DNA of 64,000 nucleotides from Candidatus Binatia bacterium (GCA_963664015.2 CAXXLF010000002.1:1568001-1632000), one strand, 5' to 3'. Shown: positions 821-35,940, numbered from the stretch's first letter. A program made the numbers and translations. The notes: a model not told the origin generated them from the sequence alone.

Positions 821-1273
821 TAGAAAGATAACCCTAGGGGCGGTTTTCGACCACTTCCCCAACGATCTTGACTGTCTTTTGTAAATCCTTTTTCTCTTTG
901 TTCCTATTTTTTATGTAGCTGTAGCGTGGATCCAAGTCTCCGTCCCGACTTCGTGTCCCTGGGCGACGATCTCCTTGAAAACATCGGGATAGTTCTGAAT
1001 CGTGATACCCGTAGGGGAAAAGGTTGTTTGAACGCCCTCCTTGTGGAATAGCTCCAGCATGCGAAAGACACCCACGCGCTCGCCGTATTCCCTGTCCGTA
1101 ATGGAGCCAAGATTTTTCTTGGTCACTGCGTTCTTGGGAAACACCCGGCGAGCTTCCTGCTGCAGCGATCCGCCTACCCCCAAATCCGCGGGCCAGGTCT
1201 CAAAGGCCACCCATGGCGTAATAGCGAGCCGTGCTCCGTTGGTCCAGAGAATGGGTTCCCTCTTTCTTTTCAT
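812..1273 (-). pseudogene. Polysaccharide deacetylase / PuuE-like protein, truncated
   Basis: WTNGARLAI, DREYGERVGVFRMLELF and GHEVG motifs; frameshift near 925, then IKNRNKEKKDLQKTV...RP*GYLSTGVR, ending inside the tctC remnant. Confidence 0.75.
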
Positions 1274-1557
1274 AATTAGCCTCCCAATTTCGGAATTGGC
1301 CTTACTCACGCCTCAACCATTGAGGCTTGTCAAGTTGCTTCCCAGGTTCGGACTAAACCTAACCCACCGATATCCTATTGGAATGTTGGCAAATAAACTA
1401 AATTTATGGCTTGGAAAGGTGATTTGAACATTAAAATCGTAGAGCTAAGGAGGCATGGGTGCTGCAATTGACAAGCTCGCCCTACCGGGGTTAGAATGCC
1501 GCCGGTCAACTAGTCACTTCAAAACTTAAACCAGCTCGTTAAAGGAGGATTCCAATC

Positions 1558-2718
1558 ATGGTCATGCTCGGTACCGACATGAAGGTCGCAGCGACCCCCA
1601 CGGAGGGTCTTGAAGAGTGGAGGGAGCCCGACGCCTATGATACCTGGCTGAAGCAGGAAGGCGTAAAGGTTTACGAGGAGTTCTACTTTCCGAGCCTGGC
1701 AAAGATCGAGCTGGGGCCGTGGGAGCGCAAGGGAGGAAGCGGCGCCGTTATCCACATCGACAACCGCCATATGCCCAATGACTGCCACGTCGTTGAGATC
1801 AAGCCCGGGGGCAAATCCGAGCCGGAGCACCACATGTACGAATGCACGGTCTACGTGGTCTCGGGCCGCGGTGCGACGACCATCTGGCAGGATGAGAAGC
1901 ACAAGCAGACCTTCGAGTGGCACGCCGGTAGCCTCTTTGCCATCCCGCTCAACTCGTGGTACCAGAATTTCAACGGCAGCGGCGACGAGCCTGTCCGCTA
2001 CGTCACAGTGACCAACGCCCCTCCCATGATGCGGCTCTACAACGACAATAACTTTATATTCAACTGCGATTACAATTTCCGCTCTCGCTATTCGGACGAG
2101 GAGGACTATTTCAGTGGTAAGGGCAAACTTTTCAAAAAGCGGGTGTGGGAGTCCAACTTCATCGCCAATGCGCCGGACATGCTGCTCTATTCGCGGGACA
2201 ACCGGGGCGCCGGCGGTATCCACGCCGCCCTCGAGATGGCCAATAACAATATGAAAAATCACATTTCTGAGTTTCCCATTGGCACGTACAAGAAAGCCCA
2301 CCAACATGGTCCGGGAGCCCACCTGGTCCTGCTGAGTGGTACCGGCGGCTATTCTCTGGTCTGGACCAAGCCGGACCGTTCCGACATGATCAAGTGCGAC
2401 TGGCAGTTCGGTTCCATGGTCGTCGTCCAAAACGACGACTGCTTTCATCAGCACTTCAACACGGGGACCAACCGAGCCCGCTACCTGGCGCTGAGGACGG
2501 GCGATATGGGTCTCAACTCGTCGAAGCCCGCCCCCATTCAGCCAACCGAAGTCAGTATCAAGGACGGCGGCGGCCAGATCGAGTACCAGGACGAAGACCG
2601 GGAGATCCACGAGATCTTCGAAAAAGACCTGAAGGCCCACGGCGCGCCGTGCAAGATGAAGGCCTTTATCCCCTGGTGCACCGGTGAGGACGGACCGATG
2701 AGCGAGAGGGATACGTAA
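1558..2718 (+). CDS. Bicupin (double cupin) protein
   Basis: Two cupin motifs (PEHHMYE...NSWYQNFN; KKAHQHGPGAH...FHQHFNTG); RBS AGGAGG upstream. Confidence 0.85.
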   Translation: MVMLGTDMKVAATPTEGLEEWREPDAYDTWLKQEGVKVYEEFYFPSLAKIELGPWERKGGSGAVIHIDNRHMPNDCHVVEIKPGGKSEPEHHMYECTVYVVSGRGATTIWQDEKHKQTFEWHAGSLFAIPLNSWYQNFNGSGDEPVRYVTVTNAPPMMRLYNDNNFIFNCDYNFRSRYSDEEDYFSGKGKLFKKRVWESNFIANAPDMLLYSRDNRGAGGIHAALEMANNNMKNHISEFPIGTYKKAHQHGPGAHLVLLSGTGGYSLVWTKPDRSDMIKCDWQFGSMVVVQNDDCFHQHFNTGTNRARYLALRTGDMGLNSSKPAPIQPTEVSIKDGGGQIEYQDEDREIHEIFEKDLKAHGAPCKMKAFIPWCTGEDGPMSERDT

Positions 2719-2942: not shown

Positions 2943-3971
2943 GTGGAAGACTATCCCGCCATCGACGCCGATGGCCATATTATCGAGCGCAGGGAAGAAC
3001 TCCGTCAGTACCTGGAACCGCCTTACAATAAGCGCGGAGGAACCCTGACCCCCTCAGAACCGTGGGACCGGAGTCTCTACGGCAAACTTCCCTTGAATCA
3101 GGACGATTTTCCGTCGGTTCCGAGCGCCGAGGATTGGCTTCGCTTGATGGATAGGAGCCAGATAAGCGACGCGTATCTCTACCCGACCTCCATGGGAAAC
3201 GTCTCCCGGGTGCGCGAGGTGGACTTCGCTGTCGCCCTCAGCACAGCCTACAACAACTACGTCCACGACAAGTTTGCCAAGGTTTCGGATCGGCTGAAAC
3301 CCATTGCCCTGATTTCACCGCAGGATCCGGTCAGGGCGGCGAAGGAGCTGCGGCGGGCGGTAACGGATCTTGGCTACCGGGCCGGAGTGGTCCGAACGAC
3401 CGGCTTGCGATTGCCTCTCGGACATAGTTTTTACGATCCGATCTATGAGGAAGCGAGTCGTCTCGGCTGCGCCATCGCAGTTCACGGCACCAACGGCGGC
3501 GAGGAGGTTGCCTGTGGGGGATTCGACACCTTCACCGAGGTCCACACGGTCTCCTTTCCCGTAGGTATCATGGCTCAATTTACAAGCATGATCTATCAGG
3601 GCGTGCCGGAGCGTTACCCCAATCTTCGTTTGGCTTTCTTGGAAATCGGCTGCACATGGCTGCCCTACTGGCTGAACCGGATGGACGAGCACTGGGAGAA
3701 ACGGGGCACAGTGGAAACACCAAATTTGAAACGTCCTCCAAGCGAGTGCGTGCGCGAGCGGGGTATCTACTTTAGTCTCGAGGCAGAGGAGACCCTGTTG
3801 CCCGAGACCCTCAGATACGTTGGCGACAGTCACTTCCTGTATGCCACCGATATCCCCCACTGGGATAACGAATACAAAGAGAACCTGAATCGACTCAGGT
3901 CGCGAGACGACCTCTCCCCAGAGACAAAGAAAAAGCTCCTGCACGATAACGCGATAGCCCTGTACAGGTAG
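2943..3971 (+). CDS. Amidohydrolase-2 family protein
   Basis: DADGH, AVHG, AFLEIGCTWLP and YATDIPHWD motifs. Confidence 0.9.
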   Translation: MEDYPAIDADGHIIERREELRQYLEPPYNKRGGTLTPSEPWDRSLYGKLPLNQDDFPSVPSAEDWLRLMDRSQISDAYLYPTSMGNVSRVREVDFAVALSTAYNNYVHDKFAKVSDRLKPIALISPQDPVRAAKELRRAVTDLGYRAGVVRTTGLRLPLGHSFYDPIYEEASRLGCAIAVHGTNGGEEVACGGFDTFTEVHTVSFPVGIMAQFTSMIYQGVPERYPNLRLAFLEIGCTWLPYWLNRMDEHWEKRGTVETPNLKRPPSECVRERGIYFSLEAEETLLPETLRYVGDSHFLYATDIPHWDNEYKENLNRLRSRDDLSPETKKKLLHDNAIALYR

Positions 3972-3974
3972 AAG

Positions 3975-4380
3975 ACAGCAGACAACCTTTCAGCTGTCAG
4001 AATTTAGCAAAGAAGTGTTGAGTGTTAAGTAAACAGTGATCAGGTCAAACTTCTTTTACGGCAGATAGATGAAGACGGGGGATCAAATTCTAAATCCCAA
4101 GCACCAAACATCAAACAAATCCGAATTTCGAAGCTCTAAACAATACCGAACCCCTAAACTACTCAATCCGATAGTTTTGGAGATTGGATATTTTGTCATT
4201 TGAATTTGTTTCGTATTTGGGATTTCGAATCTCGAGTTCTGAAACCACTGTTACCCTCTTTGGCTGATAGCTAGTCCTGTCCTGTTGCTCCCAGCCCACT
4301 GCTTGCTATCTTTCTGACCTCTGACATCCGACCTCCGGTTCTGTGCACTATGCAGTAACGGCTAATACCTGATTACTCAA
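3975..4380. repeat. Modular palindromic intergenic block
   Basis: Imperfect inverted pair at about 4085-4141 / 4174-4238 (AAATCCCAA...AAACAAAT vs ATTTGTTT...TTGGGATTT) and a TCTGACCTCTGAC unit inverted relative to 5729-5760. Confidence 0.7.
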
Positions 4381-4385
4381 TCCAC

Positions 4386-5621
4386 TCATTCCAGTCCTTC
4401 ACTTTCCGGTGGAGTGGTGCCCTGGGGGTACCGGTAGAGCTCCGGGAGACGGAGCAATAAAAAGCTACCGTAGATTAGAAAGAACGCACATGCCCCGGTT
4501 ATGGCCCAGGGGGCGCTTACAAGTGAGGCGAGGGTGCCGAGTTGTAAGTGACCTAGAGGCCCAATCCCCCGGTGGACCATCATGTTCATTGACATGATCC
4601 GCCCGCGCAACCGATCGGTGATCGAGAGCTGAAGCATCGTGTTCCGAACGGTCCCTCCCATAATGTCCAACGCACCTGCAAGGGCAAGCCAAAGCAGGGA
4701 AACCGGCATCCATTTAGAAAAAGAAAAGAACATGAGCACCACGGGCATGGCAAAGGAAGAGATGGTGAACAGGCGCCCCTTCTTTCTCACATCACCCATG
4801 GCGATGGCCAACCCTGAACCGATCAGCGCGCCTATCCCCGGTGCGGCATAGAGCAGGCCGAGTCCCGTCGGACCAACGTTGAGAATGTCGCGGGCGAAAA
4901 CGGGCAACAGGGCTCGGTAGGTCACAAAGAACGTGTGGACAGCCTCTATACTGAGGAGGCCCCAGAGGAAACGGTTGTCCAGTACGGTCCGGAAGCCTTC
5001 GACGATGGACCGAGTCATCGATGTCTTATGAGTCGGGACCTCCATCGCCGCAATTCTCATCAAGAACAGGGCCACCAGGACCATTCCATGGAGCAGGGCA
5101 TAAGCAAAGAACGTCCACGTGATTCCCAACAGGGATATGCCGAGACCGGCAATCATAGGGCCCACCAGGGCGGTACTGCGTCGAACCGCCGAGGTAAGGG
5201 CAACCGCCCTCATGAGTTCCTCACGGGGAACCAAGCTGGGAACGAGGGATTGGCGTGCGGGACCATCGAAACCGGTAATGGTCGCGTTAAGAAAACCGAG
5301 CGCGTAGAGATGCCAGACCTGGATCAGGTCCAAGCCTGTAAGGATACCAGGAATCAAAGCCAGAACTGTGCTGACGATCTGGGCGGTGAGCAGTATCTTT
5401 CGCCGGTCCATGCGATCAGCGAGCGCACCCCCATACATGGATGTAATGAGGAAGGGAATCGACGAAAAGATACCCATCACCCCAAGCATAAATGGCGAGT
5501 CCGTCAGCTCGAAGATCAGCCACATGGTCGCTACTTGATGAACCCATGAGGCGCTGGCAGCGACGGCCCAGCTTGTCCAGAGGAGCCTGAAATTGCGATG
5601 TCGTAACGGACCCAGTGTCAC
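4386..5621 (-). CDS. MFS transporter (MFS_3 / EntS-like)
   Basis: LRHRNFRLLW, GGALADRMDRRK, FDGPARQSLVP and LRGR motifs; about 12 hydrophobic segments; start at GTG 5621 is inferred. Confidence 0.9.
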   Translation of the reverse strand: MTLGPLRHRNFRLLWTSWAVAASASWVHQVATMWLIFELTDSPFMLGVMGIFSSIPFLITSMYGGALADRMDRRKILLTAQIVSTVLALIPGILTGLDLIQVWHLYALGFLNATITGFDGPARQSLVPSLVPREELMRAVALTSAVRRSTALVGPMIAGLGISLLGITWTFFAYALLHGMVLVALFLMRIAAMEVPTHKTSMTRSIVEGFRTVLDNRFLWGLLSIEAVHTFFVTYRALLPVFARDILNVGPTGLGLLYAAPGIGALIGSGLAIAMGDVRKKGRLFTISSFAMPVVLMFFSFSKWMPVSLLWLALAGALDIMGGTVRNTMLQLSITDRLRGRIMSMNMMVHRGIGPLGHLQLGTLASLVSAPWAITGACAFFLIYGSFLLLRLPELYRYPQGTTPPESEGLE

Positions 5622-5699
5622 GGTGCCTGTCTTTTCACTTTCAAACCTAATTCTATTAGAGAAAGGCCCCGGGGGATCCCGGGGCATCCTCAACGTACT

Positions 5700-6190
5700 A
5701 CAAAAAGGAGCAAAGAGCATAGGGGCAAAGAACCAGAGGGCGGAGATCAGAGGTCAGAGATCGGACTAGCGCAAAATGCATAACGCTAAGGGCAAAGCGC
5801 ATGGAGCAAAGCGTTATAAGTTTACGGACTACTGACTACGGGACTACAAAGACGCATTTAGTACTGAGCAACGAGTGCTGAGTAGTGAGTTACCGGACTA
5901 AAGTAAGACAGTAGGCAGCAATTAGCTAAGAGACTAGCGACGACAGGACTACTGACCACAGACAAAAGACAGACAGAAGACAAGATCCGGACGCTTTGCG
6001 CTCTGCCCTATGCGCTTTACTCTTCTCGCGTCGGCGAATATCTGCGGTTAAAGAATCCGGATCCGAATACTGAGAACTGTTTACTGAAAACTGGTAACCA
6101 AACAATAAGTTCAATCCGGAGCTGAACGCTGATAGCTTTATTGCTGCCTACTGTCTTACTGTTTTACGCCATGCGCTATGCAGCGCTTAG
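5700..6190. repeat. Modular palindromic intergenic block
   Basis: Perfect 21-bp inverted repeat AGTAAGACAGTAGGCAGCAAT (5902-5922 / 6140-6160); segment 6061-6136 nearly identical to 63767-63842. Confidence 0.8.
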
Positions 6191-6192
6191 GG

Positions 6193-7254
6193 CTACGTTC
6201 GCATCGGCAGCGTAACAATCGCCTGACCTCGCGCGGCCTCCGCCCGTGGGTTGTGGACGGAAATCTCCAGGTGAACTCGGCCTAGGTTATCGACCACCTC
6301 TTTGTTCACGATCCGGGCCCGGCAGGTCAGCGTGTCCCCCGGATGGCTGTTTTTCACCATGCGGAAGGGACCCAGTTTCCGCAGCCGCCCATCCAGGCCC
6401 ATCCACCTGCGCAGTGTAATTTCGAATACCATTTCATAGCCGCGGGTGTTGAAGATAATATCATCAAGGCCAGCGGCGCGGGCCGCCTCACGGTTGTGAT
6501 GGATGGAGCTCCACATGCGATCGACGGCCACGCTCATCACGATTCGCTGGTAGTTTAGCCATACACTGTACGGCGGTACGTCGTCCCCTATGTTCACGCT
6601 CTCGAAGGAGAGCTGTTGACCCCAGTCCACTTTAGGATTTTGCTCTTCCGACCTTGCCTCAGAGGGCGGACCCGGCTCAGTGGGAGCTTCTTTAACAGCT
6701 TCCGGGCGCTTGGGAAACGGATCGTACCGATAGCCGGTATTTCCCTGGATGGCCACAAGCTCCCCGGTCTGCTTCGACATTCTAGTCTCATACGTCAAAA
6801 AGACGCCGTCCCCGAGACGAGTTCGCTTGGGCGTAATCTCTACAAGTTTCGACGTCCCACGCAACCGATCGCCTGGATAGAGCGGCTCAAAATGCTCTAC
6901 CTCACTGGCGCTGTTGAAGCCCTTCGAATAAGGGACTGGGATGTTGCCCCGAACGGTGCCGCTTTTTTCAGAGAGACCCGGGGCAAAGATCGACGGTTCC
7001 CCGGGAGACCAGTACGCAGGCATAGCCCAAAGCGGGGTCATGGACACAGGCGCAACGAGGGTACGGTATCCATGAGCCCTGGCCACAGCCTCGTCGTAGT
7101 GCACTGGGCAGTCGAAACAGTACACTTCAACTTTCCGGCGGATGTCGTTGCGTGTAACCTCGTCTACGCCTTCGAAGTTCGACTCGACCCCCAGCCATTT
7201 CCGGGTATCTTCCAGTGAAATGTCCACTTTTTCCGTTCGATCTGCCATCTTCAC
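6193..7254 (-). CDS. Double hotdog MaoC/FAS1-like dehydratase
   Basis: Two MaoC-like domains (CPVHYDEAVAR...PLYPGDRL; SIHHNREAARAAG...HPGDTL). Confidence 0.85.
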   Translation of the reverse strand: MKMADRTEKVDISLEDTRKWLGVESNFEGVDEVTRNDIRRKVEVYCFDCPVHYDEAVARAHGYRTLVAPVSMTPLWAMPAYWSPGEPSIFAPGLSEKSGTVRGNIPVPYSKGFNSASEVEHFEPLYPGDRLRGTSKLVEITPKRTRLGDGVFLTYETRMSKQTGELVAIQGNTGYRYDPFPKRPEAVKEAPTEPGPPSEARSEEQNPKVDWGQQLSFESVNIGDDVPPYSVWLNYQRIVMSVAVDRMWSSIHHNREAARAAGLDDIIFNTRGYEMVFEITLRRWMGLDGRLRKLGPFRMVKNSHPGDTLTCRARIVNKEVVDNLGRVHLEISVHNPRAEAARGQAIVTLPMRT

Positions 7255-7346
7255 ACCATAGGTCAGGAAGGTTAGACCGCAATTTCGTCGGGGTCAATGT
7301 CAGGGCCGGGATTCTCCATTGCAGCCCTGGATCAATGGAACAGCGG

Positions 7347-8858
7347 TCAGCCGAACACCAGGGACTTCACGACGACGGGAACGGCACCCCGGTTCAGCAG
7401 TTCCTGGCCAATATCAATGAAATCCAGGTCGCGCAATTCGATCTCGTCCACAATTACAATATCGGACTTTACCTCTAACTCATGCTTCAGCAGCGTTCCT
7501 AACAATCCACCGATATCCGAATCGAAGACCAGGACCCACGGGGTACCGTTACCTCTGGGCGCGAGAGCCGAGCTAATCCCTGTGGCCAAGGCAAGAGCAA
7601 GATCATAAGAAAAATCAAAGGGCCAGTGGAAAAACACTGCAATGGGATGATCAAGATTCTCCGTACCCAAATCAAGCCGCTCAATCGCCTGCCGGATCGC
7701 CCGAGCGAATCCTTCGGCGCTGAGCTGGTCCGGATCAACCTGGGGGACTACGACTTGAAAATCTCTCAGCGGCAAAACCCCGGGATCGGAGATGAAGATC
7801 GTGCTACTCGAAACCTGCACCGTGTACTGGGAGGCCCCGATCACGGTGGCACAGATCTTTTCATCCCCTTCCCCGAGGGGAACGCCCAGACTGGCTATCC
7901 GTGCCTGGATCTCCTCTGCCAGGAGCGGCCCCAGGTCACCGTAATCGCGATTATCGCAGCCGTAGATGTACTCGGCTATGCCTCCCGAGAAGGTGATCTC
8001 ATCGATCGGACCTTCAAAGGCCAAAGGATCGGTCAGCAAAAGAGCCGTCGCCAGAGGGGACAATGGTCCGCGGCGAAGGAATTCGAAGAGCAGGTCCGCC
8101 AGGCCCTGTGCCAGACGGCGTCTCTCCTCGGCGGACAGCCTCATTCCAAGTTCCGGATGGAGTCCCAAATGGTGTGCGACCCTGCGTCCCGGCTCCTCGA
8201 TACGCTGGAGGTGCCCCTGAAGGTCCCACGCAATGAGCCGGGCGCCGATATTGATCGCCGCCGTCTCAAGCACCGAACCGTCACGAACAAAAGTGGATTT
8301 ACATGTCCCACCGCCAACGTCCACGTTGAGTACGGTCCGGTGGTTGACCGATCGTGCAACAGCACCGGACCCGTGGGCCGACAGGATACCCTCCAGATGG
8401 GGCCCGGCAGTGGCACAGACAAAGTTTCCGCCCATGGCGGATAGCATGCGCGTGATCGCCTCTGAGTTCTTTTTTTTAACGGCTTCACCGGTGCAAATGA
8501 CGGCGCCGGTATCGACTTGCGATGGTCGTAGGCCCGCGTCTTGGTAGCCCTCCAGGATAAACGTCGAAAGCCGGTCGGTGTCGATAGTCTCGCTGTCCAC
8601 ATAGGGCGTCAGAAGGATAGGGGTGCGGTGCAGCACTTCGCGCCGGACCACCCGAAAACGGCTCGAGAGGTCGATGCCTTGCCGCTCTAAAAACAGCTTT
8701 GAAAGGGTGAGGTGGGTGGTGGTGGAGCCGACATCAATGCCTACGCTTTTCAGGATGAGCCACCCGGGATTGGGGGCAAAGGTCGCGGAGGGATCGATCT
8801 CTCCGCTTTCTGATGAATCCTCAGATTTCCCCGGATGGTGATGATGGTCATCGCTCAT
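7347..8858 (-). CDS. eutA: EutA-like ASKHA ATPase (ethanolamine ammonia-lyase reactivase family)
   Basis: SVGIDVGSTTTHL, DTGAVICTGEA, FVCATAGPHLE, NVDVGGGT, ATVIGASQYT and C-terminal DFIDIG...VPVVVKSLVF; His-rich N-terminus. Confidence 0.85.
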   Translation of the reverse strand: MSDDHHHHPGKSEDSSESGEIDPSATFAPNPGWLILKSVGIDVGSTTTHLTLSKLFLERQGIDLSSRFRVVRREVLHRTPILLTPYVDSETIDTDRLSTFILEGYQDAGLRPSQVDTGAVICTGEAVKKKNSEAITRMLSAMGGNFVCATAGPHLEGILSAHGSGAVARSVNHRTVLNVDVGGGTCKSTFVRDGSVLETAAINIGARLIAWDLQGHLQRIEEPGRRVAHHLGLHPELGMRLSAEERRRLAQGLADLLFEFLRRGPLSPLATALLLTDPLAFEGPIDEITFSGGIAEYIYGCDNRDYGDLGPLLAEEIQARIASLGVPLGEGDEKICATVIGASQYTVQVSSSTIFISDPGVLPLRDFQVVVPQVDPDQLSAEGFARAIRQAIERLDLGTENLDHPIAVFFHWPFDFSYDLALALATGISSALAPRGNGTPWVLVFDSDIGGLLGTLLKHELEVKSDIVIVDEIELRDLDFIDIGQELLNRGAVPVVVKSLVFG

Positions 8859-8887
8859 CGTCCGATGGTCCCTCTTCCTAGCGCCCT

Positions 8888-8926
8888 ATGAAGCCTCCAC
8901 GGGGTTACGCCCCGTGGACTCCTTCC
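8888..8926. repeat. REP-like hairpin (short copy)
   Basis: ATGAAGCCTCCACGGGGTTACGCCCCGTGGA hairpin; same start sequence as 17173 and similar to 31695. Confidence 0.65.
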
Positions 8927-8927
8927 C

Positions 8928-10031
8928 TTAAAGGTAGATCACGGGCGGCATGTTCAAGGGAATGTCTTTCTGCTTAAGCTCTTCGTTAAACTCTTTGCGC
9001 ACCTGGGGGTCTTCGTCCTCGTAATCGATGAGCGTGCCACCGTCTTTTATGCTGATGTAGCCGCTAAAGTCTTCACCGACCGTAAGTGTGTACCCGGGGA
9101 TCGCCGAGTTGCTGCCATATATGGCCAGATGGCGGGCCGGGCCTTTATTTGTATTGAGGTGCTGGTGAAACCAACCGTCGGGCGGGGTATAGATACTGCG
9201 CGGACCCCACTTGATCTTTAAGACCTTATCGCCGGCGCCCTCGGCGTAGGGTCGGACACCGACCTCCCGAGGCCACACGAGGACATAGCCTTCGCCCACA
9301 AGGCCGACCAGGATAGCGCCGGGGCCATGGTAGTGTGCCTTGTGATACCTTCCCGCCGGCCATTCGGATACATGCCCGTAGGGAAATCCGTCGGCCATCC
9401 TGTAACCAGTGAGCTGCCCGCCGGCAACCTTTTGCTCCAGACTGTCCAGGAACGCGGCGTTGGCGTCGGGGATGAAGTTGGTATACCAGATGGTTGCGAA
9501 GCGGCCCTCTTTCTGACGATCATCGGTGGGGGTAAAGTAATTCGCGTTCCCTTTGAAGTGATCCGTAAAGTTGTAATCGCAATTGAAGATGAATTCATGG
9601 GGACCCAAAGCACTCATCACCTTGGGAGCGGTGGTCACGGCGAGGAAGATTGCTGGCTCACGCGTTCCATTCAGGAGACGATGCCAGCAGTTGCGCGGCG
9701 GCGCAAAAACGCTACCCTCACCCCACTCAAAGGTTCGCTTGGGTCCTCCCTCTTGCCACACCTCCGTAACCCCACGCCCCTTCAAGATCACGATGGCCTC
9801 CTGGTAGAGGTGCCTTTCCGGGTTCAGCGCCTTGCCCCCGGGGATTTCCCCCACATAGATGCCTCGCTCGGCCTGTTGGGTCCCCATCATCTGGACGAAT
9901 GTCCCGTTGCCTCCGGTTCGCGCCCAGGGCTTCCTTGGGAGGTAGATCAGGTCGTCGGTCCCGGCAACGGTTTCATAGATAGGTATCCCTTCTTGTTCCA
10001 TCCAGGTTTGGTACGGGTATCTATCTCTCAT
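8928..10031 (-). CDS. Bicupin protein, paralog of 1558-2718
   Basis: PERHLYQE, NCWHRLLN, YHKAHYHGPGA, WFHQHLNT and IDYEDED motifs. Confidence 0.85.
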   Translation of the reverse strand: MRDRYPYQTWMEQEGIPIYETVAGTDDLIYLPRKPWARTGGNGTFVQMMGTQQAERGIYVGEIPGGKALNPERHLYQEAIVILKGRGVTEVWQEGGPKRTFEWGEGSVFAPPRNCWHRLLNGTREPAIFLAVTTAPKVMSALGPHEFIFNCDYNFTDHFKGNANYFTPTDDRQKEGRFATIWYTNFIPDANAAFLDSLEQKVAGGQLTGYRMADGFPYGHVSEWPAGRYHKAHYHGPGAILVGLVGEGYVLVWPREVGVRPYAEGAGDKVLKIKWGPRSIYTPPDGWFHQHLNTNKGPARHLAIYGSNSAIPGYTLTVGEDFSGYISIKDGGTLIDYEDEDPQVRKEFNEELKQKDIPLNMPPVIYL

Positions 10032-10096
10032 GTCTCTTTTTTGCTGCTCCAGGGTTACCTCCTTCGCGCAGGGACACTTTTCCGGTGGCCCAATAA

Positions 10097-11119
10097 CTAT
10101 TTTGGTCTATCGTCGATACCCAATGCCCGGAGCGCGTTACCACCCAGGATCTGCTCTTGCTCTTCTGATGTAACCGTATTCATGGATTTGATCTTGGAGA
10201 CGGGCTCTTTGTCTCCCATGCCCATAGGAAAGTCCGTTCCGATAACGACCCGGTCTGCACCGACCACTTGAACGAGGAACTGAAGGGCAACAACCGAGTG
10301 GACGATCGAATCATAATACATTTTCTTCAAGTAGGCGGAAGGTTTCTGTGGAGCCAGTTTCCTGAGGTCGCCTCTTAGCGTATGGGCATGGTCCAGACGC
10401 CAGATATTAAAGGGCAGGTATCCACCGCCGTGGGCCAGGCAGAGCCTGAGATTCGGGAACCTTTCAAAAATCCCCTTGAGAATCATTCGTTCGATCATCA
10501 GCGTGGTCTTGTAGGGAAAGCCCAGGACATTACCCAGGATCCCAGAGGTTAACGTCTCCGGCGGGTCCCCTCCCTCAATGGGGTGAACAAACAAAAGGAG
10601 GTCGAGCTCTTGGGCTGCGGCGTAAAAGGGCTCCAAACTCGGGTCGTCCAGGGGTTTCCCCTGGATATGGGTCCCGACTTCCAGGCCTTTCAATCCCAAC
10701 TGGTGGGCCTCTTTAGTAATGGCGATGGCCTCCGGTATGCTCTGAAGGGGAACGGTCCCGAATCCGACGAATCGGTCGGGACGGGACTCGACGGCCTGCT
10801 GGATCGCCTCGTTCTGGAGACGGGAGAAGTAGGCTGCGGGATCGGCCAGGTCCCAATAGAACAACAGGATGGGAGATGGCGAGATGGCCTGGAAATCGAT
10901 TTGCATTTTGTCCAGCTCGCGGACCCGCGCCTCGACGTTGTAGGCCCCCTCACCCAGGTTGCCACGGCTTCCACCGGGACAGGACACCGAATACTGGCCG
11001 TCGGTCAGCGTAATTTCCGGGGCGTGCTGGCGGAATTGCTGCGCCTTCTGAAACGCTTCCAGGGCGAAAAAATGCGAGTGGAGATCGACATTCATGTTTT
11101 TCATCCTTTGGGGAGTCAC
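10097..11119 (-). CDS. ACMSD-like amidohydrolase / decarboxylase
   Basis: DLHSH, FVHP, LAHGGGYLP and VVIGTDFP motifs. Confidence 0.9.
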   Translation of the reverse strand: MTPQRMKNMNVDLHSHFFALEAFQKAQQFRQHAPEITLTDGQYSVSCPGGSRGNLGEGAYNVEARVRELDKMQIDFQAISPSPILLFYWDLADPAAYFSRLQNEAIQQAVESRPDRFVGFGTVPLQSIPEAIAITKEAHQLGLKGLEVGTHIQGKPLDDPSLEPFYAAAQELDLLLFVHPIEGGDPPETLTSGILGNVLGFPYKTTLMIERMILKGIFERFPNLRLCLAHGGGYLPFNIWRLDHAHTLRGDLRKLAPQKPSAYLKKMYYDSIVHSVVALQFLVQVVGADRVVIGTDFPMGMGDKEPVSKIKSMNTVTSEEQEQILGGNALRALGIDDRPK

Positions 11120-12162
11120 TATGGCTGAAAGAGAGTAAAGATTTTGTCGGAATTAAAAATGTATGTTTCGGCGTAGGCAACGACTTCGGCTTTTCTATCG
11201 GCCATGGCCCCCGCCAGGCATAGCCAATTCAAAAACTCGTGCTGTCCGGCGTCGGTCAAAGTGTCGGGGGCCAGGTTGCGCCATTCACTATGTCGTCCGC
11301 TCTCAAGTTCCTTCAACCTTTTGCGGTCGGATACAACATCAGGATAGAGACCGTGGTGTTTCCGGGTCAGAAAGGCGTGGGACCAGGATGAAGACCCAAT
11401 GACAACCGCCCGCCACCGGCTCTCTTGCAGGATACGACCGACCTCGACCCCAAGGTCGAAGCAACGCTGGGGAGTGGGGGCCGGCGGGGCTAGCTCCCCA
11501 TCGGCAAAATTAGTGATTGCCCGTTTCGCGATGAGGTCACTCCCGTAACAATTGACGTGAAAAGGAATGATGGGGTAGGCAAAACCGCGCTGATCGTAGT
11601 CCAGGTAAACCAGGGTACGCATAAAGGCGTGGGCCAAACCGGGGTGGTGGTGGGGTTTATAGGAGTAACAGACATCGAAGTTGTTTAGAGTGAGTTCACG
11701 GGCCAGATGGTGAGCTGCTTCACGGTGGCCGCGAACAGAGACGGCCTTGTCCTCCGGTTGCCCCCATACATTGACGGGGGAGTTGATAACGGCACTACTC
11801 TTATAAGGGAAGCATTCAAGCTGATCGTAAATGTAGACACAAAAGGGTGGAACGATATCTTCCTTAAAGTTCTCGTACTGGTCATCGCCCCAGATGAGAA
11901 CCACATCCGGATTGAATGCGTCAATTTCCGCGCGTAAACGGCGAAATCCGTTGATGGCGATTTCCCGGTGTTTCCGGGCCGAATTGAGGCCTTCGTCGTC
12001 TCCCCACTCTGCCTGCATGGGCTCAGGCCACTGGTGTACCTCTCTCATATTTTCTGGCAGCCGTGGGCTCTTCATGAACCGGCGCAGAATGTCGGACATA
12101 TTTTCATCCGGGAACTGAAACATCGGCGCGTGGGACAGGCCCATTCCAAGCAAATCTGCCAT
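11119..12162 (-). CDS. LigB-family extradiol ring-cleavage dioxygenase
   Basis: GLSHAP, WGDDQYENF, LAHAF, SSSWSHAFL and GQHEFLNW motifs; start at ATG 12162 after AGGGAG. Confidence 0.85.
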   Translation of the reverse strand: MADLLGMGLSHAPMFQFPDENMSDILRRFMKSPRLPENMREVHQWPEPMQAEWGDDEGLNSARKHREIAINGFRRLRAEIDAFNPDVVLIWGDDQYENFKEDIVPPFCVYIYDQLECFPYKSSAVINSPVNVWGQPEDKAVSVRGHREAAHHLARELTLNNFDVCYSYKPHHHPGLAHAFMRTLVYLDYDQRGFAYPIIPFHVNCYGSDLIAKRAITNFADGELAPPAPTPQRCFDLGVEVGRILQESRWRAVVIGSSSWSHAFLTRKHHGLYPDVVSDRKRLKELESGRHSEWRNLAPDTLTDAGQHEFLNWLCLAGAMADRKAEVVAYAETYIFNSDKIFTLFQP

Positions 12163-12178
12163 TAAGAGTCTCCCTACC

Positions 12179-13327
12179 TTAATCCAATACGGGTTTGGTC
12201 GAATCGAACTCGATGATCCGGTTCTTTTCCGGATCTCGCACCAGTGCCATGGGCTCGCCGCCGTTCTGCACGATCTCGATTTGTTCGCGCAGCATCTTGC
12301 GATACATGATGATCCCTTCATCCGTCGACCCGAGGTTTTCCTCGCTCCGATCGTAAAGGGCTCCTTGCGTCTCCCAGGCCATCTTGTCCTGACTGGAAAA
12401 GGAAGTCATCTGGTGCTCGCCCTCTGGCGTCATCAAGGAGTCCATGGGAAGAAATTTTGGCTCTTCGGGCACGTTGGTGGATTGGGGCCTCTCCTTGGGA
12501 TTGAAGGCCATGACCGTGATCTGAGTGTGGGTGTCGTCGATGGGGACACGCCAGTGCACAGCTTCGATATAACTCTGGGGGATCCGAAGGATGTTGGGAA
12601 AGACCAGGGGGGGGCGGTGCTCTTCCTCCGGCCGATCCCCTCCGTAAACACAACGCTTGGTCACCCCCCATTCGCTGACACCCCAGCCATAGTCCTCTAC
12701 GGGCCGGTGGTAGAAGTCCCCCAGCTTATTTCCCAATTGCTGCATGACTTCACCGTGGAGGTAATAGGTATGGATGATATCGACCGAGTTCTCCATGGCC
12801 TGGAGCCAGTTGCACTTGAGCACCGGGTGGACCTCGAGGGTCCGCGTCCCATCGGTCCTGACGAGCACATCCCAACGGGGTAAAAGGGGCTTTTTCTCCG
12901 GCGGACCCATATAGATGAACAGAATGCCGGTCAGCCTTTCAACCGGGTAGCTCCGAAGGGTGACCTTGTCCTTGAACTCGGGGTTTCTTTCGAAAGGTTG
13001 TTCCAAACACTTCCCCTCGGCATCGTACTTCCATCCGTGGTAGGCGCAGCGAATACCGTCGGGTTCCGCAAAACCGTAATACAGAGACGTCCCCCGGTGA
13101 GGGCAATGCTCTGCAACGCAGCCGTAACGGATCTCTTTGTCACCTGGTTTTGAAGGCAGGCGGAAGACGACCAGTTCTTCACCCATGATCTGGACGCGTT
13201 TTTTAGGCGCCGCTTCCGTGAGCTCGCTGGCCAGGCAGACCGGCTGCCAGTAACGGCGCAATAGGTTCCCAGCTGGTGTACCGGGACCTACACAAGTGAG
13301 TAGCTCATTGACCTCGGGCGTTAGCAT
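12179..13327 (-). CDS. Rieske non-heme iron oxygenase (phthalate dioxygenase / LigX-like)
   Basis: GTPAGNLLRRYW, CPHRG...CAYHGW, ENSVDIIHTYYLH and QD motifs. Confidence 0.92.
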   Translation of the reverse strand: MLTPEVNELLTCVGPGTPAGNLLRRYWQPVCLASELTEAAPKKRVQIMGEELVVFRLPSKPGDKEIRYGCVAEHCPHRGTSLYYGFAEPDGIRCAYHGWKYDAEGKCLEQPFERNPEFKDKVTLRSYPVERLTGILFIYMGPPEKKPLLPRWDVLVRTDGTRTLEVHPVLKCNWLQAMENSVDIIHTYYLHGEVMQQLGNKLGDFYHRPVEDYGWGVSEWGVTKRCVYGGDRPEEEHRPPLVFPNILRIPQSYIEAVHWRVPIDDTHTQITVMAFNPKERPQSTNVPEEPKFLPMDSLMTPEGEHQMTSFSSQDKMAWETQGALYDRSEENLGSTDEGIIMYRKMLREQIEIVQNGGEPMALVRDPEKNRIIEFDSTKPVLD

Positions 13328-13406
13328 GACACCAACCTCCTTATCTTAGAATCTTCGATTCTAAAAGTTCTTCCTATTGACCTTACCCTAGCCCGTATTC
13401 TAAACG

Positions 13407-14540
13407 TTATTTCCTTTTTCGAGCCGCTTTACCCGTATCAGCCCTCGCTTTGGCGACGATTCTCTTAAGGCCGCTCACGTCCTTGTATTCGTACAGGTTG
13501 GAAATCATATACTTGCCCCCCGATTTGGCGACCATAAACTGGTCGGTGATCATACCCTTGGGGATATCCATGCGCATGGAGTTGCGATCCGCATTCTTCT
13601 GCCACGAAAGTTGCCCCTCCTTGGAAATCATCCAGTTTGCGAAAACTGCGGCTGCATTGGGATTAGGGGCGCGGTTCACCACCGCGAGCTGACCCCACCC
13701 CCCCGACAGGTACGCCTCTGAGGTAGGTGCACGGTAGATGGCAACGGGCAAGCCCTGTTTCATGGCAGTCGCCACCTCGGTACCCCTGGCCGCAACGTAG
13801 AGCTCGTACCTTCCCGAGGCGACCCAGTCGATCATCTGCACGATGCCTCTCGCTATCGTGATGCCCGTCTCGCTAAACAATCGCTGGATGAACTTTGGCC
13901 CCATTTCCTTGTTGTAGTAGAGGCCCTTCCAGTTGGCCAGCCTGCCACGCGCCGTCGGATCGTCGGTCACCATCTTGCCGTGCCATTTGGGATCGAGAAG
14001 ATCTTTGTAGGTCTTGAGCTCTCCTGGCTTGTGCCTCTTGGTGTTGTAGAGTGCGATGGTGGACGTGACGGTCCCTTCCATAAGGAAGAGGGACTTATTG
14101 GGAACTCCGTAATGATGTTGCTTCCGGAACCAGGCCGACTGGTCCGTGGCTTCCGGTAAGATCAAACGGGGTGGGAGAGGGTCAAAGAAACCTTTTTCCG
14201 CCAGGATGCCGCCGGTTCCCCCACCTCCCACATAAATATCCGCGATAAATTTTCCAGCCCGGCGTTCGGCGCCGAGCCGGTTCCCGTGTTGGCTTCCCGA
14301 ACCGGGGACATAAACCATATTGATTTTAGGATAGACGCTTTTAAACGCCTCAATGGCGTTGATGTACTGGATTCCCGGAGGTCCATAGAGCCGGAAGCTC
14401 CCCTCTTCTCGTGCCGCGGCCAGGGTTTTTTCCCAATCGGCCTTCCAGTCCGCTTGTGCCGGCTTATAAAACGACAGCAGCAGAAAACTTAGAACCATGC
14501 AGAATATAAGCAAAAACCTTAGTCGAATAATCATCTTCAT
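13407..14540 (-). CDS. ABC-type extracellular solute-binding protein (AfuA-like)
   Basis: Signal peptide; WEKTLAAAREEG, DLLDPKWHGK and APNPNAAAVFANWMISKEGQ motifs. Confidence 0.85.
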   Translation of the reverse strand: MKMIIRLRFLLIFCMVLSFLLLSFYKPAQADWKADWEKTLAAAREEGSFRLYGPPGIQYINAIEAFKSVYPKINMVYVPGSGSQHGNRLGAERRAGKFIADIYVGGGGTGGILAEKGFFDPLPPRLILPEATDQSAWFRKQHHYGVPNKSLFLMEGTVTSTIALYNTKRHKPGELKTYKDLLDPKWHGKMVTDDPTARGRLANWKGLYYNKEMGPKFIQRLFSETGITIARGIVQMIDWVASGRYELYVAARGTEVATAMKQGLPVAIYRAPTSEAYLSGGWGQLAVVNRAPNPNAAAVFANWMISKEGQLSWQKNADRNSMRMDIPKGMITDQFMVAKSGGKYMISNLYEYKDVSGLKRIVAKARADTGKAARKRK

Positions 14541-14929
14541 TACCCCCTCAATTAGTAGTACTATCGAGAACCCGTGCAGTCTATGGAGAACCGACGTCAC
14601 TGTCAAATCCCAATATACTAATCATGACCATCGGTTTAGCGATCGTAGCTCCCATGATCGGTTTCCGGGTTGGATTGTCCAGGTCGTCCATGTAGCAGAA
14701 CGTGCCAATACTTTCAGCCAGTCATCAAACTCTCAGGTTTTTTCATTGGGACTATTTGTCATAGTTGACCACTTCCATGGGTAACCGGTGCCAGGCAAAA
14801 TCCGCATCCTCCTGGTCACCCGAGTCGTGTCCTGAAGGATCGATTTGTTGCCCCCATAGTCTACCATTGCTCAAGTGGGAATTGACACTGTGGTGCGTCC
14901 TGGTCTAAAGAGGCAAGGATAGGAGGTAA

Positions 14930-16693
14930 ATGACCGTGGAGGGACAAGCGACCCATTGGGATATGGAGGCGGACGTCGTTGTGATCGGCGCAGGGGCCAC
15001 CGGTTTGCCGGCATCCATCGCTGCACGGGATAACGGAGCGTCAGTGCTCGTGGTTAACGCTAATTACGACATTGGGGGCCACGCCATCCTGAGCGGCGGC
15101 AATACGGCGCTGGGGGGCGGCACCATTTTGCAGAGAAAATACGGTATTGAAGATTCACCGGACCTGGTATTCTCTGATCTGACCGACTGGTCCGTCGTGG
15201 AACCCAACGGCTCACCCAATTATCGATATAACGACAGGGCCGTCATTCGCGCCTATACCGATCACGCGGTCGAGACTTTCGAATTCCTGGTAGCCAACGG
15301 GGTAGAGTTTGCGGACAAGGCCCCGGACAACTCGGGTGCTCATTGCACCGGCAATTCGGCTCCCAGAGAAAATCATACGGATTGGACTGAAGGGGTAGGT
15401 CTGGCCAGTCCCGGCGCCAAAAAAGGGACTGGTCTCATCCGACCCCTCGAGGCAAGCGCTCGGGCCAAAGGCGTGAAGCTCCTCCTCAATCATAAAATGA
15501 CGGGCCTTTTCAGGGAAACCACGTCGGGCATGGGGGCGGGAAGGGTAACGGGGATTACCGCCCAGTACACCCCTAGATTACTCCCAGGAGCGACTACACC
15601 GCTCGGAAGCTATCGTTCCGAAGGAAACATCGAGAGTACCAAGCCAAGCATCAGTATCCACGCGGCCAAGGCCGTTATCGTCGCCACCGGGGGAAGCACG
15701 GGCAACGTCAACTTCCGCCGCATGTTCGACCCCAGGTTGACCGAGGTCTACCAGGTCGCCGGCGAGCCCTATTCGTTCCAGGACGCGAGTGGCGAGATTG
15801 CCGCCATGGCCATCGGCGCGTCGCTCTGGGGACTGGGTAATCAAGCTCTCGAAAACGGCGATCATATGAGGACCCAGAAGGCGATTGGGTGCCAGTACAA
15901 TTATTTCACCTGGGCACTGGCCAGCCCTATTTTCCCCCTGGTTCGTGCTACCGGGCTGAACGTCAAAGATTGGCAAAATCTCATCATGGTCAACCAGGCG
16001 GGGCAGCGATTCTACGATGAGACCCAGGGAGATTACCCGGCGGGGAACAAATTTAACGATCTCAGCCCTTATACGCCGCGCAGCCACCGCAATCCGGGAC
16101 AGATCCAATACGAATGGAGCCGGTACAACTTCCTCAATGCCGCCACAGCGATGAATGCGGCTTCGGTTCCTCCGGACTATCCGGCCGGGCCCGTCTGGGC
16201 CATTTTCGACGCGGAGGCCGTAAAACGTGAGAAATGGAAAACCACCCCACCTCACGTGGATCCAGACGGTTATTTCTTCAGCGCACAAACTCTCGCGGAC
16301 CTTGCTGCCGCTATCCGAACCCCATTTCAGGACGCTCCGATGAACGCCGCGACGTTGCAAGCCATGGTCACGCGATACAATTCCTTTGTCGATTCCGGAA
16401 CCGACTCGGACTTTGACAAGCCCTCACCACAATTCAAGATCCAAACGCCGCCGTTCTACGCGGCCTGGGCTACGCCGTTGCTCCACGACACACGGTCCGG
16501 TCTAAGAATCAACGGCAAGGGCCAGGTGATGGACATGAACGGCCAGGTCATACCCGGCCTCTACCGTGGCGGTGAGTCCGCCGGTGGATTCAATCAACAT
16601 GGTCTGGGCCGATGCTCCTGCCAGGGTTACATCGCCGGTCAAAACGCCTCTGGAGAAACTCTTGGGAAAAATGAACTCACAAGGGAGAAATGA
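14930..16693 (+). CDS. FAD-binding dehydrogenase (fumarate reductase / ketosteroid dehydrogenase flavoprotein superfamily)
   Basis: DVVVIGAGATG, VIVATGG, TRSGLRIN and IPGLY..GE motifs. Confidence 0.85.
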   Translation: MTVEGQATHWDMEADVVVIGAGATGLPASIAARDNGASVLVVNANYDIGGHAILSGGNTALGGGTILQRKYGIEDSPDLVFSDLTDWSVVEPNGSPNYRYNDRAVIRAYTDHAVETFEFLVANGVEFADKAPDNSGAHCTGNSAPRENHTDWTEGVGLASPGAKKGTGLIRPLEASARAKGVKLLLNHKMTGLFRETTSGMGAGRVTGITAQYTPRLLPGATTPLGSYRSEGNIESTKPSISIHAAKAVIVATGGSTGNVNFRRMFDPRLTEVYQVAGEPYSFQDASGEIAAMAIGASLWGLGNQALENGDHMRTQKAIGCQYNYFTWALASPIFPLVRATGLNVKDWQNLIMVNQAGQRFYDETQGDYPAGNKFNDLSPYTPRSHRNPGQIQYEWSRYNFLNAATAMNAASVPPDYPAGPVWAIFDAEAVKREKWKTTPPHVDPDGYFFSAQTLADLAAAIRTPFQDAPMNAATLQAMVTRYNSFVDSGTDSDFDKPSPQFKIQTPPFYAAWATPLLHDTRSGLRINGKGQVMDMNGQVIPGLYRGGESAGGFNQHGLGRCSCQGYIAGQNASGETLGKNELTREK

Positions 16694-35123: not shown

Positions 35124-35940
35124 ATGAACCATCGAAAGAAAATCGTGCCCCCCCCTGGCAAACGCCTTTCCGTATCGGTCCATTTCCCGGTGGAGTAGTG
35201 GAGTCAAAAGGATAAGGACTACTTACAAAACTATCGCCGGGAGTACGGGGTCAAGATTGGGGCCTGGAGGTTGCTCGACGTTTTTGATCGGGTAGGCATC
35301 AAAGGGACCTGCCATATGAATGGAATCGTGGCTGAGCTGTTTCCCGATTTGGCCCGGGAGATCGTGCGGCGTGGACATGATGTGGCTGGGCACGGTTACG
35401 ATCAGTCCGTTCCCCAGTACCGGGTGGGCCCTGACGAAGAGAGGGAGATCGTTAGGAGCACCCTGTCTACCATTGAACAGATTACGGGGTACCGGCCCCA
35501 GGGTTGGGTAGCCACGGGAAGGACAATTACAAAGGACACGCTTCGAATATTGGCGGAAGAGGGCGTGCTTTGGCACAACAACCACGATTTGGCCGACCTG
35601 CCAACTGGGGTCGAGGTTGGTGGTAAAATCATCCTCGATATTCCTATCCAGCGATACCTGAATTGCGACGAGAGAAGATTCCTCGGAATTGAAGGGAAGG
35701 GCCCCCCATCAGCTTTAGAAATGTTCTGGAGTTTTTTAAAGATCAGCTGGACACCCTGAGAGGGGCCGCCCAGTATGAACCATTGTGTTTCGCGTTCGGC
35801 GCCCACGCCTATATGTCCGGCTTACCTGCTTACTCCTGGACTCTCGAGAGGATGTTGCATTACTGCCAGTCGTTTCCCGATGTCTGGACGGTGACAACGG
35901 CAGGTCTGGCTCGGTATTGGCTGGAAAATAATGTAGAGGC
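35124..35940 (+). pseudogene. Polysaccharide deacetylase family protein, disrupted
   Basis: REYGVKIGAWRLLDVF, GHDVAGHGY and YRPQGW; in-frame TAG at 35196 and a frameshift near 35720-35740. Confidence 0.8.

Follow-up and report, generated by a model that had tools for sequence, protein, structure and literature searches.

What an ATPase of the EutA family does in a gene cluster for the degradation of aromatic rings is the question raised by a 64,000-nucleotide stretch of DNA from Candidatus Binatia bacterium (GCA_963664015.2 CAXXLF010000002.1:1568001-1632000), referred to at its full length as the window. Seven co-directional minus-strand genes at 6193-14606, recognized from open reading frames (ORFs) and from Pfam and NCBIfam scans, include one for a 503-residue EutA-family ASKHA ATPase, P0001 (7347-8858, minus strand), beside one for a 367-residue two-barrel cupin, or bicupin, P0002 (8928-10031, minus strand). 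Canonical EutA strips damaged cofactor from ethanolamine ammonia-lyase, EutBC, and requires ATP to do so (PMC5821096). A first-pass annotation of the window had described a co-directional, close-set cluster with an orphan EutA-like gene and no eutB, eutC or cobalamin genes in 64 kb, and ORF, Pfam, NCBIfam and tblastn analyses bear this out: EutB, EutC and B12-related Pfam families are absent among the 52 ORF translations scanned from the window, and E. coli EutB, EutC, EutT, EutJ and part of EutQ find no tblastn match in it. Its further suggestion, that the protein serves a different client, gains support from the split of the family tree, conserved linkage to bicupin genes and prediction of a complex. 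The answer advanced here, to which we give an even chance, is that the EutA-like protein is an ATP-dependent accessory factor (chaperone, reactivase or metal-centre maturase) for bicupin oxygenases.

P0001 covers positions 3-474 of the 475 in the Pfam EutA profile (PF06277) and scores 391.5 bits, the cut-off being 27; its alignment with E. coli EutA is full-length, with 34% identity over 474 positions (E 9e-73). The phosphate-1 (DxGxT/S), phosphate-2 (DxGGGT) and adenosine (GG) motifs of the ASKHA fold are present and intact; all 79 related rows have the same ATP-binding residues D42, G44, D180, G182-184, T185, G292 and G293, and S45 is invariant or nearly so. The AlphaFold model, with a mean predicted local distance difference test score (pLDDT) of 82, shows an ASKHA core followed from about residue 350 by a C-terminal alpha/beta domain. 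No EutA-family structure was found in the PDB by sequence; by structure, Foldseek matched the P0001 core to Ppx/GppA, HgdC, MbdQ, PilM, MreB and a ROK hexokinase, with probability 1.00 for Ppx/GppA, HgdC, PilM and MreB. The protein has many relatives. A word-index protein search gave 6958 at E <=1e-3 among 8000 scored candidates, the 120 listed being 49-76% identical and, where named, mainly from Chloroflexota or Dehalococcoidia, and an exhaustive search gave 2591 representative clusters at E <=1e-3, of which 751 also pass E <=1e-30. Six EutA-family proteins of 671-704 residues (P0203, P0210, P0224, P0228, P0240 and P0253) carry an N-terminal extension of about 200 residues that has no Pfam match and shows a zinc-ribbon-like CxxC...H(H/C) pattern with no cupin; proteins of 670-700 residues were considered as cupin fusions and rejected, the extension being unrelated to cupins.

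The full-length family match and the 34% identity to E. coli EutA are what would be expected if P0001 were an ordinary EutA, reactivating an ethanolamine ammonia-lyase encoded elsewhere, with its position in an aromatic cluster incidental; relatives are also annotated as EutA publicly, and the comparison covers the window and the related loci rather than the rest of the source genome. This explanation is nevertheless judged very improbable, first because P0001 stands apart from the eutBC-linked EutAs. In a quick IQ-TREE analysis of 83 proteins, the four EutAs adjacent to eutBC (E. coli, two haloarchaea and C. difficile) separate from 79 non-canonical rows with a Shimodaira-Hasegawa-like approximate likelihood ratio test (SH-aLRT) value of 99, so that the phylogeny sets P0001 outside canonical EutA, with the caveat that the canonical rows are long branches and the position of the root is unsure. 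The NCBIfam EutA equivalog model is non-diagnostic in this respect: P0001 scores at best 316 against a cut-off of 598 and none of six other non-canonical proteins reaches the cut-off, but of the four eutBC-linked controls only those of E. coli and C. difficile reach it and the two haloarchaeal ones do not. The P0001 protein thus belongs to a non-canonical sister clade of the EutA family, separate from the eutBC-linked EutAs.

Gene context makes the same division. E. coli EutB, EutC, EutT, EutJ and EutQ have no tblastn match in 80 related loci with flanks of about 10 kb, whereas among 26 plasmid records with a EutA-family gene, 22 are of canonical type (29-34% identical to P0001) and 21 of these 22 have EutB within 2.3 kb, the Brevibacillus copy being not judgeable. 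The remaining four plasmid genes are rhizobial and 43-44% identical to P0001. As a side observation, EutB is encoded on 161 plasmid or chromid records as against only 26 for the EutA family, so many Proteobacteria (among them Agrobacterium, Sinorhizobium, Rhizobium, Azospirillum and Burkholderia) seem to have an ethanolamine ammonia-lyase at work with no EutA on a plasmid; the count covers plasmid and chromid records.

The non-canonical clade is also marked by an N-terminal tail of about 30 extra residues rich in His, Asp and Glu (e.g. MHDDPWEHGH, LHEGHEDE), of which the HHHH noted at the N-terminus of the window protein by the first-pass annotation is part. P0001 begins MSDDHHHH, and its tail comprises residues 1-35, MSDDHHHHPGKSEDSSESGE... 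(8754-8858, minus strand); pLDDT is below 50 at residues 1-21 and 26-29, and the tail is predicted to be disordered. A strict regular expression finds the His/acidic tail in 70 of 83 rows and most of the other 13 carry a looser form, only L048 and L082 being clearly without it. The four canonical EutAs begin 5-10 residues before the first ATP-binding motif, and all four lack the tail. Cys148 is likewise kept in 78 of 79 non-canonical rows and is Val or Ala in the canonical proteins. Tail and Cys148 together, missing as they are from the canonical proteins, add to the case against an ordinary EutA. A conserved Cys pair as a cluster site was considered and rejected, since C148 alone is kept and C122 occurs in only 31 of 79 rows.

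What replaces EutBC beside these genes is commonly a bicupin. The sample of loci was the best 80 of 571 relatives from one scan of genome contigs, and a locus was counted as linked when a bicupin matching the profile for the window's family lay no more than 2 kb from the EutA-like gene. Such a bicupin is found in 31 of the 80 loci, in three orientations relative to the EutA-like gene: in 16 loci it lies upstream in the same direction, 12-370 bp away, in 11 it is divergent and in 4 convergent. The retention of linkage through these rearrangements again speaks against an ordinary EutA in an incidental position. Among the 42 bicupin genes in these loci, 35 fall in the nearest 28% of the flanking DNA, which is 13 times the density elsewhere (binomial p 9e-14, with no correction for relatedness). 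In L045 and L048, on a basal non-canonical branch, the gene directly upstream instead encodes a bicupin like gentisate 1,2-dioxygenase (GDO; best PDB match 3bu7, E 2.9e-15), and L010 and L054 have partial bicupin matches at contig ends. Among the rows of the tree, 37 are bicupin-linked, 32 unlinked (including the four canonical) and 14 unjudgeable for short flanks. The records of the linked rows are assigned to Chloroflexota/Dehalococcoidia, Alphaproteobacteria, Binatia, Myxococcota/'Deltaproteobacteria', Thermodesulfobacteriota and Methylomirabilota, and the bicupin tree mirrors the EutA clades, so that the genes travel as a pair. The two rhizobial plasmids examined have a bicupin of the window's type directly upstream of the EutA-like gene: in Phyllobacterium zundukense a 'hypothetical protein' with two Cupin_2 stretches directly precedes the gene annotated EutA, and Sinorhizobium mexicanum has the same arrangement. 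Adjacency to a cupin is thus conserved, in the 31 loci, in the two with GDO-like bicupins and on the two rhizobial plasmids.

The number of bicupins per EutA-like gene varies. There are three in L023, two in each of L015, L016, L062, L072 and L074, and two within 6 kb in the window itself, an arrangement that fits a shared accessory factor. The second bicupin of the window (1558-2718, plus strand; Cupin_2 in Pfam) belongs to the P0002 family, lies 4.7 kb from the EutA-like gene, is 37% identical to P0002 (E 9e-71) and keeps the conserved His residues of the family. In the tree it groups with the EutA-adjacent bicupins of the alphaproteobacterial loci L019, L020, L024 and L029, and its 57-63% identity (tblastn) to such alphaproteobacterial bicupins exceeds the 37% to P0002, so one ATPase may serve both bicupins of the window. 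Judging by contig names, at least five metagenome-assembled genomes (MAGs) carry two EutA-like paralogues (L001/L049, L002/L077, L017/L044, L059/L063 and L055/L062).

Abundance of paralogues could also mean that the adjacency is without meaning, both genes being merely common members of catabolic islands: the bicupin family is multi-copy, and the window is rich in paralogues (Amidohydro_2, Rieske, LigB, DLH, MFS_3). This is scarcely credible in view of the 13-fold local enrichment within loci, the recurrence of the pairing across distant phyla and with bicupins of a second family, like GDO, and the outcome of complex prediction. The EutA-like protein and the bicupin gave interface scores (ipSAE, interaction prediction score from aligned errors) of 0.61, 0.58 and 0.61, as against 0.00 in the best-scoring of three controls; of 157 solved complexes 116 reach the mark applied to this score, and of 215 mismatched pairs 2 do, a calibration that is rough because the alignments were custom-made. 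Between runs at least 85% of contacts are the same, and partner pLDDT is at least 86. These models support direct binding of the bicupin by the EutA-like protein. On the EutA side the predicted interface is formed by the C-terminal domain (residues 350-353, 415-421 and 447-460), and on the bicupin side by loops of the N-terminal barrel (65-68, 86-90, 98-102, 120-124, 167-168 and 188-189). The predicted interface residues S350, T353, Y418 and D448 are conserved family-wide, canonical EutAs included, so this surface of the C-terminal domain may be the client-binding face of the whole EutA family.

As to the partner, P0002 belongs to an uncharacterized family recognized by Pfam as Cupin_2. Its AlphaFold2 model (pLDDT 89; predicted template modelling score, pTM, 0.89) has two beta-barrels. 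Sequence search (phmmer, E up to 1) finds no PDB relative, GDO included, and Foldseek returns only generic bicupins (MncA, oxalate decarboxylase, seed globulins, GDO) at template modelling (TM) scores of 0.40-0.53 and 9-14% identity. The one NCBIfam match is 5-aminosalicylate dioxygenase at E 1.3e-3, with 18 bits against a cut-off of 650; a family search gives 1344 matches at E <=1e-3 named only 'cupin domain-containing', and the ESM Atlas clusters matched are named 'Cupin domain-containing' only. At least nine of the bicupin matches listed lie on a contig of 590,335 bases, a size shared by a contig with a EutA-like protein. In 36 aligned members, H220, H233, H235, H289 and H291 of the C-terminal barrel are invariant, with Ala at the position of the usual cupin Glu, and in the N-terminal barrel H74 is kept in 36 of 36, Y76 in 32, E78 in 29 and H117 in 32. 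The putative His-only metal site so formed in the C-terminal barrel resembles those of ring-cleaving cupin dioxygenases. 3-Hydroxyanthranilate dioxygenase pairs with ACMSD in an established pathway, and the position of the bicupin beside an ACMSD-like enzyme recalls that pairing; by this analogy it is plausible that P0002 is an oxygenase.

Since canonical EutA acts on EutBC with ATP, the simplest transfer is that the sister clade does similar work on bicupins, and that the usual client of the non-canonical clade is a bicupin metalloenzyme and not ethanolamine ammonia-lyase seems to us about evenly balanced between true and false. By analogy, a reactivase or metal-exchange mechanism can be envisaged in which the ASKHA ATPase would dock on the bicupin through its C-terminal alpha/beta domain, and ATP binding and hydrolysis would open or remodel the client, as canonical EutA does EutBC. 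A wrong, oxidized or missing active-site metal could then be exchanged or inserted in the opened bicupin, the flexible His/acidic tail serving as a transient metal ligand. The client in the window, and probably the bicupin at 1558-2718 as well, would be an oxygen-dependent enzyme that helps to degrade an aromatic acid taken up by the cell, together with the Rieske oxygenase, the LigB-type dioxygenase and the ACMSD-like decarboxylases. A rationale for an active metal-exchange factor for a cytoplasmic cupin is offered by the title of PDB entry 2vqa, according to which folding location decides the metal bound by a cupin. The most specific form of the proposal, offered tentatively and with a good deal less than even expectation, is that the non-canonical clade is an ATP-driven repair or metal-proofreading machine for cupin oxygenases, which would open a trapped metal site and remove oxidized or wrong metal with the tail as receiving or donating ligand. 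If so, it would keep the multi-copy bicupin dioxygenases active in bacteria that oxidize recalcitrant aromatics (Chloroflexota, Binatia, soil Alphaproteobacteria), and the reactivase family would gain in bicupins its first class of clients other than B12 enzymes.

The main rival, which appears unlikely on balance, holds that the EutA-like protein, instead of being a protein-directed chaperone, itself catalyses an ATP-dependent step on a small-molecule intermediate of the pathway, as a kinase or an activator (hydantoinase-like or carboxylase-like), either alone or as a subunit in a heteromer with the bicupin. The ASKHA fold, with Ppx/GppA phosphatases, a ROK hexokinase and the ATP-dependent activators HgdC and MbdQ as its nearest structures, and the intact ATP-binding motifs suit such an enzyme as well; two steps of one pathway would equally give conserved operon linkage, and a heteromeric enzyme would also pass complex prediction. 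What tells against it is that the only EutA-family protein to have been characterized has a protein as its client (PMC5821096), that a single ATPase gene often stands beside two or three bicupin paralogues, that the pair is constant while the surrounding pathway genes vary widely, and that the His/acidic tail is left without explanation. Because of the clade-specific tail, the several bicupins per ATPase gene and the constancy of the pair in changing pathways, an accessory factor fits better than a pathway enzyme.

A number of observations nevertheless weigh against an accessory factor for bicupins. The nearest solved folds are those of small-molecule phosphatases, kinases and electron-transfer activators, and no reactivase is among the Foldseek matches listed for P0001. 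The predicted interface lies on the N-terminal barrel of the bicupin, away from the C-terminal barrel with the invariant His cluster, and the His-rich tail takes no part in it. Shared ancestry inflates the linkage counts, the tree requiring no fewer than seven changes of state, and no bicupin-EutA fusion is found among proteins of 644-2000 residues, which is weak evidence. Nor is adjacency universal: 28 non-canonical rows have flanks long enough to judge and show no bicupin within 2 kb, and most of them belong to a 33-row clade beside DUF4175 and TPR genes. The bicupin-EutA module proposed by the first-pass annotation is upheld in that the pair recurs across phyla, with the restriction that a large EutA-like subclade has no adjacent bicupin.

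That subclade (L030-L043, L047, L049, L051-L053, L055, L057, L058, L060, L063-L067, L069, L070, L073, L076 and L080) keeps the His/acidic tail without the bicupin neighbour. Its genes are found with a divergent DUF4175 gene (24 loci), TPR proteins, housekeeping genes and, in nine loci, a downstream Lactamase_B_5 gene, and the records are mostly of Binatia and 'Deltaproteobacteria', with Myxococcota, Thermodesulfobacteriota and a few others. A different local variation is seen in Dehalococcoidia, where the conserved neighbourhood of the bicupin-EutA pair includes a gene for a two-domain protein of the VOC (Glyoxalase/dioxygenase) superfamily (L005:8216-9133, L014:8567-9442, L009:5711-6601 and L011:7000-8058), and in L005 and L014 no bicupin lies between this gene and the EutA-like gene. 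The VOC protein was considered as a bicupin substitute in these two loci and rejected, since its gene also stands beside a bicupin in L009 and L011; the bicupin thus appears simply to have been lost from L005 and L014.

The pairing has apparently not been described before, as the first-pass annotation supposed. Full-text literature, from which subscription journals are largely missing, yielded no description of a EutA-family protein with a cupin or outside ethanolamine metabolism; judged by title or abstract, matches for 'EutA homolog' and for EutA with cupin concern the unrelated ectoine EutA or eut microcompartments. What is new here is probably a reactivase-family ATPase with a non-B12 class of clients, the bicupins. 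EutA is annotated automatically as an ethanolamine-utilization gene, and among the relatives seen a large proportion, amounting to hundreds of clusters at 50% identity, evidently has no connection with ethanolamine or B12; the label is therefore wrong in metabolic reconstructions for Chloroflexota, Binatia and soil Proteobacteria. If the pairing is functional, it would provide a new accessory system for a large uncharacterized bicupin family in the aromatic-degradation clusters of abundant uncultured bacteria, and would carry the 'reactivase' principle over from cobalamin enzymes to enzymes with a mononuclear metal centre. The pair is present in the cultured rhizobia Phyllobacterium zundukense and Sinorhizobium mexicanum, which puts the question within direct experimental reach.

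Successive genes of the seven-gene run are separated by distances ranging from a one-base overlap to 92 bp, and an MFS gene lies 472 bp beyond the run. The extent of 6193 to 14540 first assigned to the cluster is right at its start and ends slightly inside the longest ORF of the binding protein, which reaches 14606. In the order of transcription, on the minus strand throughout, the run begins with an extracellular solute-binding protein (13407-14606; Pfam SBP_bac_8, SBP_bac_1 and SBP_bac_11) and the alpha subunit of a Rieske oxygenase of the phthalate/LigXa type (12179-13327; Pfam Rieske, LigXa_C and Aromatic_hydrox), whose top PDB relatives by sequence are the phthalate-dioxygenase-like 7fjl and 7fhr together with 9ina (E 2e-46 to 5e-46). 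Next is a LigB-like class III extradiol dioxygenase (11119-12162; Pfam LigB, 50.4 bits) with weak matches to NCBIfam MhpB-type models; its longest ORF reaches 12321, and the probable start is the Met at ORF residue 54, which gives 347 residues, equal to the size of the L001 orthologue. An ACMSD-like Amidohydro_2 decarboxylase or hydrolase follows (10097-11119; Pfam Amidohydro_2, 118.9 bits); it is close to solved ACMSDs (human 4ofc, E 2.7e-59 over residues 11-337; Pseudomonas, E ~1e-45), a call made by sequence similarity without inspection of catalytic residues. The bicupin and the EutA-like gene then precede a double-hotdog hydratase of HadA/HadB- or ChsH-like type (6193-7254; FAS1_DH_region, 65.9 bits, and a weak MaoC match), which resembles ChsH1/ChsH2 at E ~2e-4. 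The last gene, first described as a double MaoC member of the module, is a neighbour only in the window: it has no tblastn match in any of the 80 related loci and is absent even from L001, which is 76% identical and otherwise syntenic, and it was rejected as a module member. A promoter and terminator scan of 4000-15200 found no more sites than in shuffled sequence and was hence uninformative.

Two of the gene types that accompany the pair in the window recur beside it elsewhere. LigXa-type Rieske oxygenases are found in the window, L001, L020, L024, L026, L028, L045, L077 and L082, and Amidohydro_2 genes in the window (twice), L001, L018, L044, L045 and L078. The context is not always aromatic: in the Phyllobacterium locus the bicupin-EutA pair is surrounded by a tripartite tricarboxylate transporter (TTT), a thiamine pyrophosphate (TPP) enzyme and an oxidoreductase, and a hydantoinase occurs in L079. 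A UbiD-family decarboxylase is found in L015, a Chloroflexota locus in which it and a Cdc48-like double-AAA ATPase precede the two bicupins and the EutA-like gene (stretch L015:3606-7304). The Rieske-to-EutA-like cluster of the window is syntenic in L001, also labelled Candidatus Binatia, with 76-87% protein identity; the next relatives are all Chloroflexota, which makes either the MAG label or the history of the cluster (transfer) odd.

The window as a whole is full of catabolic paralogues. There are five Amidohydro_2 genes, including those at 2943, 10097, 26211 and 31988, of which the first (2943-3971, plus strand; 94.5 bits) adjoins the second bicupin; two dienelactone hydrolases (29761 and 39404); two LigXa-type Rieske genes; and duplicated LigB genes (11119 and 62420) and MFS_3 transporters (4386 and 27456). 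Several genes look split or truncated. A Na/alanine symporter extends over two overlapping ORFs at 50661-51979 (minus strand), as does a Peptidase M1 with ERAP1_C domain at 52456-55175 (plus strand); two polysaccharide-deacetylase fragments lie at 911-1309 (minus strand) and 35271-35759 (plus strand), and in the LigXa-type Rieske gene at 38240-39226 (plus strand) the match to the Rieske domain does not begin until position 19 of the profile. Frameshifts, pseudogenes or indels in the assembly could account for such genes.

Among known systems the closest is canonical EutA itself (E. coli b2451 and relatives), with which the EutA-like protein shares full-length membership of the Pfam family, 34% identity, the ASKHA motifs and residues S350, T353, Y418 and D448, and with which, by analogy, it probably also shares ATP-driven remodelling of a protein client. 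It differs in having no eutBC or B12 genes nearby, in its separate clade, in its tail of about 30 residues and Cys148, and in having a bicupin as neighbour and predicted partner. The diol and glycerol dehydratase reactivases DdrAB, GdrAB and PduGH are Hsp70/ASKHA-like ATPases that free damaged cofactor from their client by an ADP/ATP switch; their clients are B12 enzymes, and they belong to a Pfam family different from EutA. They supply the working model transferred here to the EutA-like protein, although no such structure is among its listed Foldseek matches.

On the side of the client, P0002 resembles GDO (PDB 3bu7, 2d40) as a two-barrel cupin of about 350-370 residues with, in one barrel, a His-only cluster (HxH...H) and Ala for the usual Glu, and in having Rieske oxygenases for neighbours; the bicupins beside the EutA-like genes of L045 and L048 are related to GDO in sequence. 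P0002 is unlike GDO in showing no sequence match at E up to 1, in a TM score of only 0.40 to 3bu7 and in carrying its invariant His cluster in the C-terminal barrel. GDO uses the N-terminal barrel. The top Foldseek match of P0002, MncA/CucA (2vqa), shares the bicupin fold at only 14% identity and a TM score of 0.48. MncA is exported, unlike the presumed cytoplasmic cupin client of the EutA-like protein. To our knowledge MncA has no ATPase partner. A nucleotide-hydrolysing accessory protein beside a metalloenzyme, with a flexible His/acidic stretch, is familiar from HypB, UreE/UreG, CooC/CooJ and COG0523. These are P-loop G3E GTPases or small metal carriers, whereas P0001 has the ASKHA fold of an ATPase and no P-loop GTPase fold, so that its likeness to the G3E/P-loop metallochaperones is functional only; the His/acidic tail of the EutA-like protein is a putative metal ligand.

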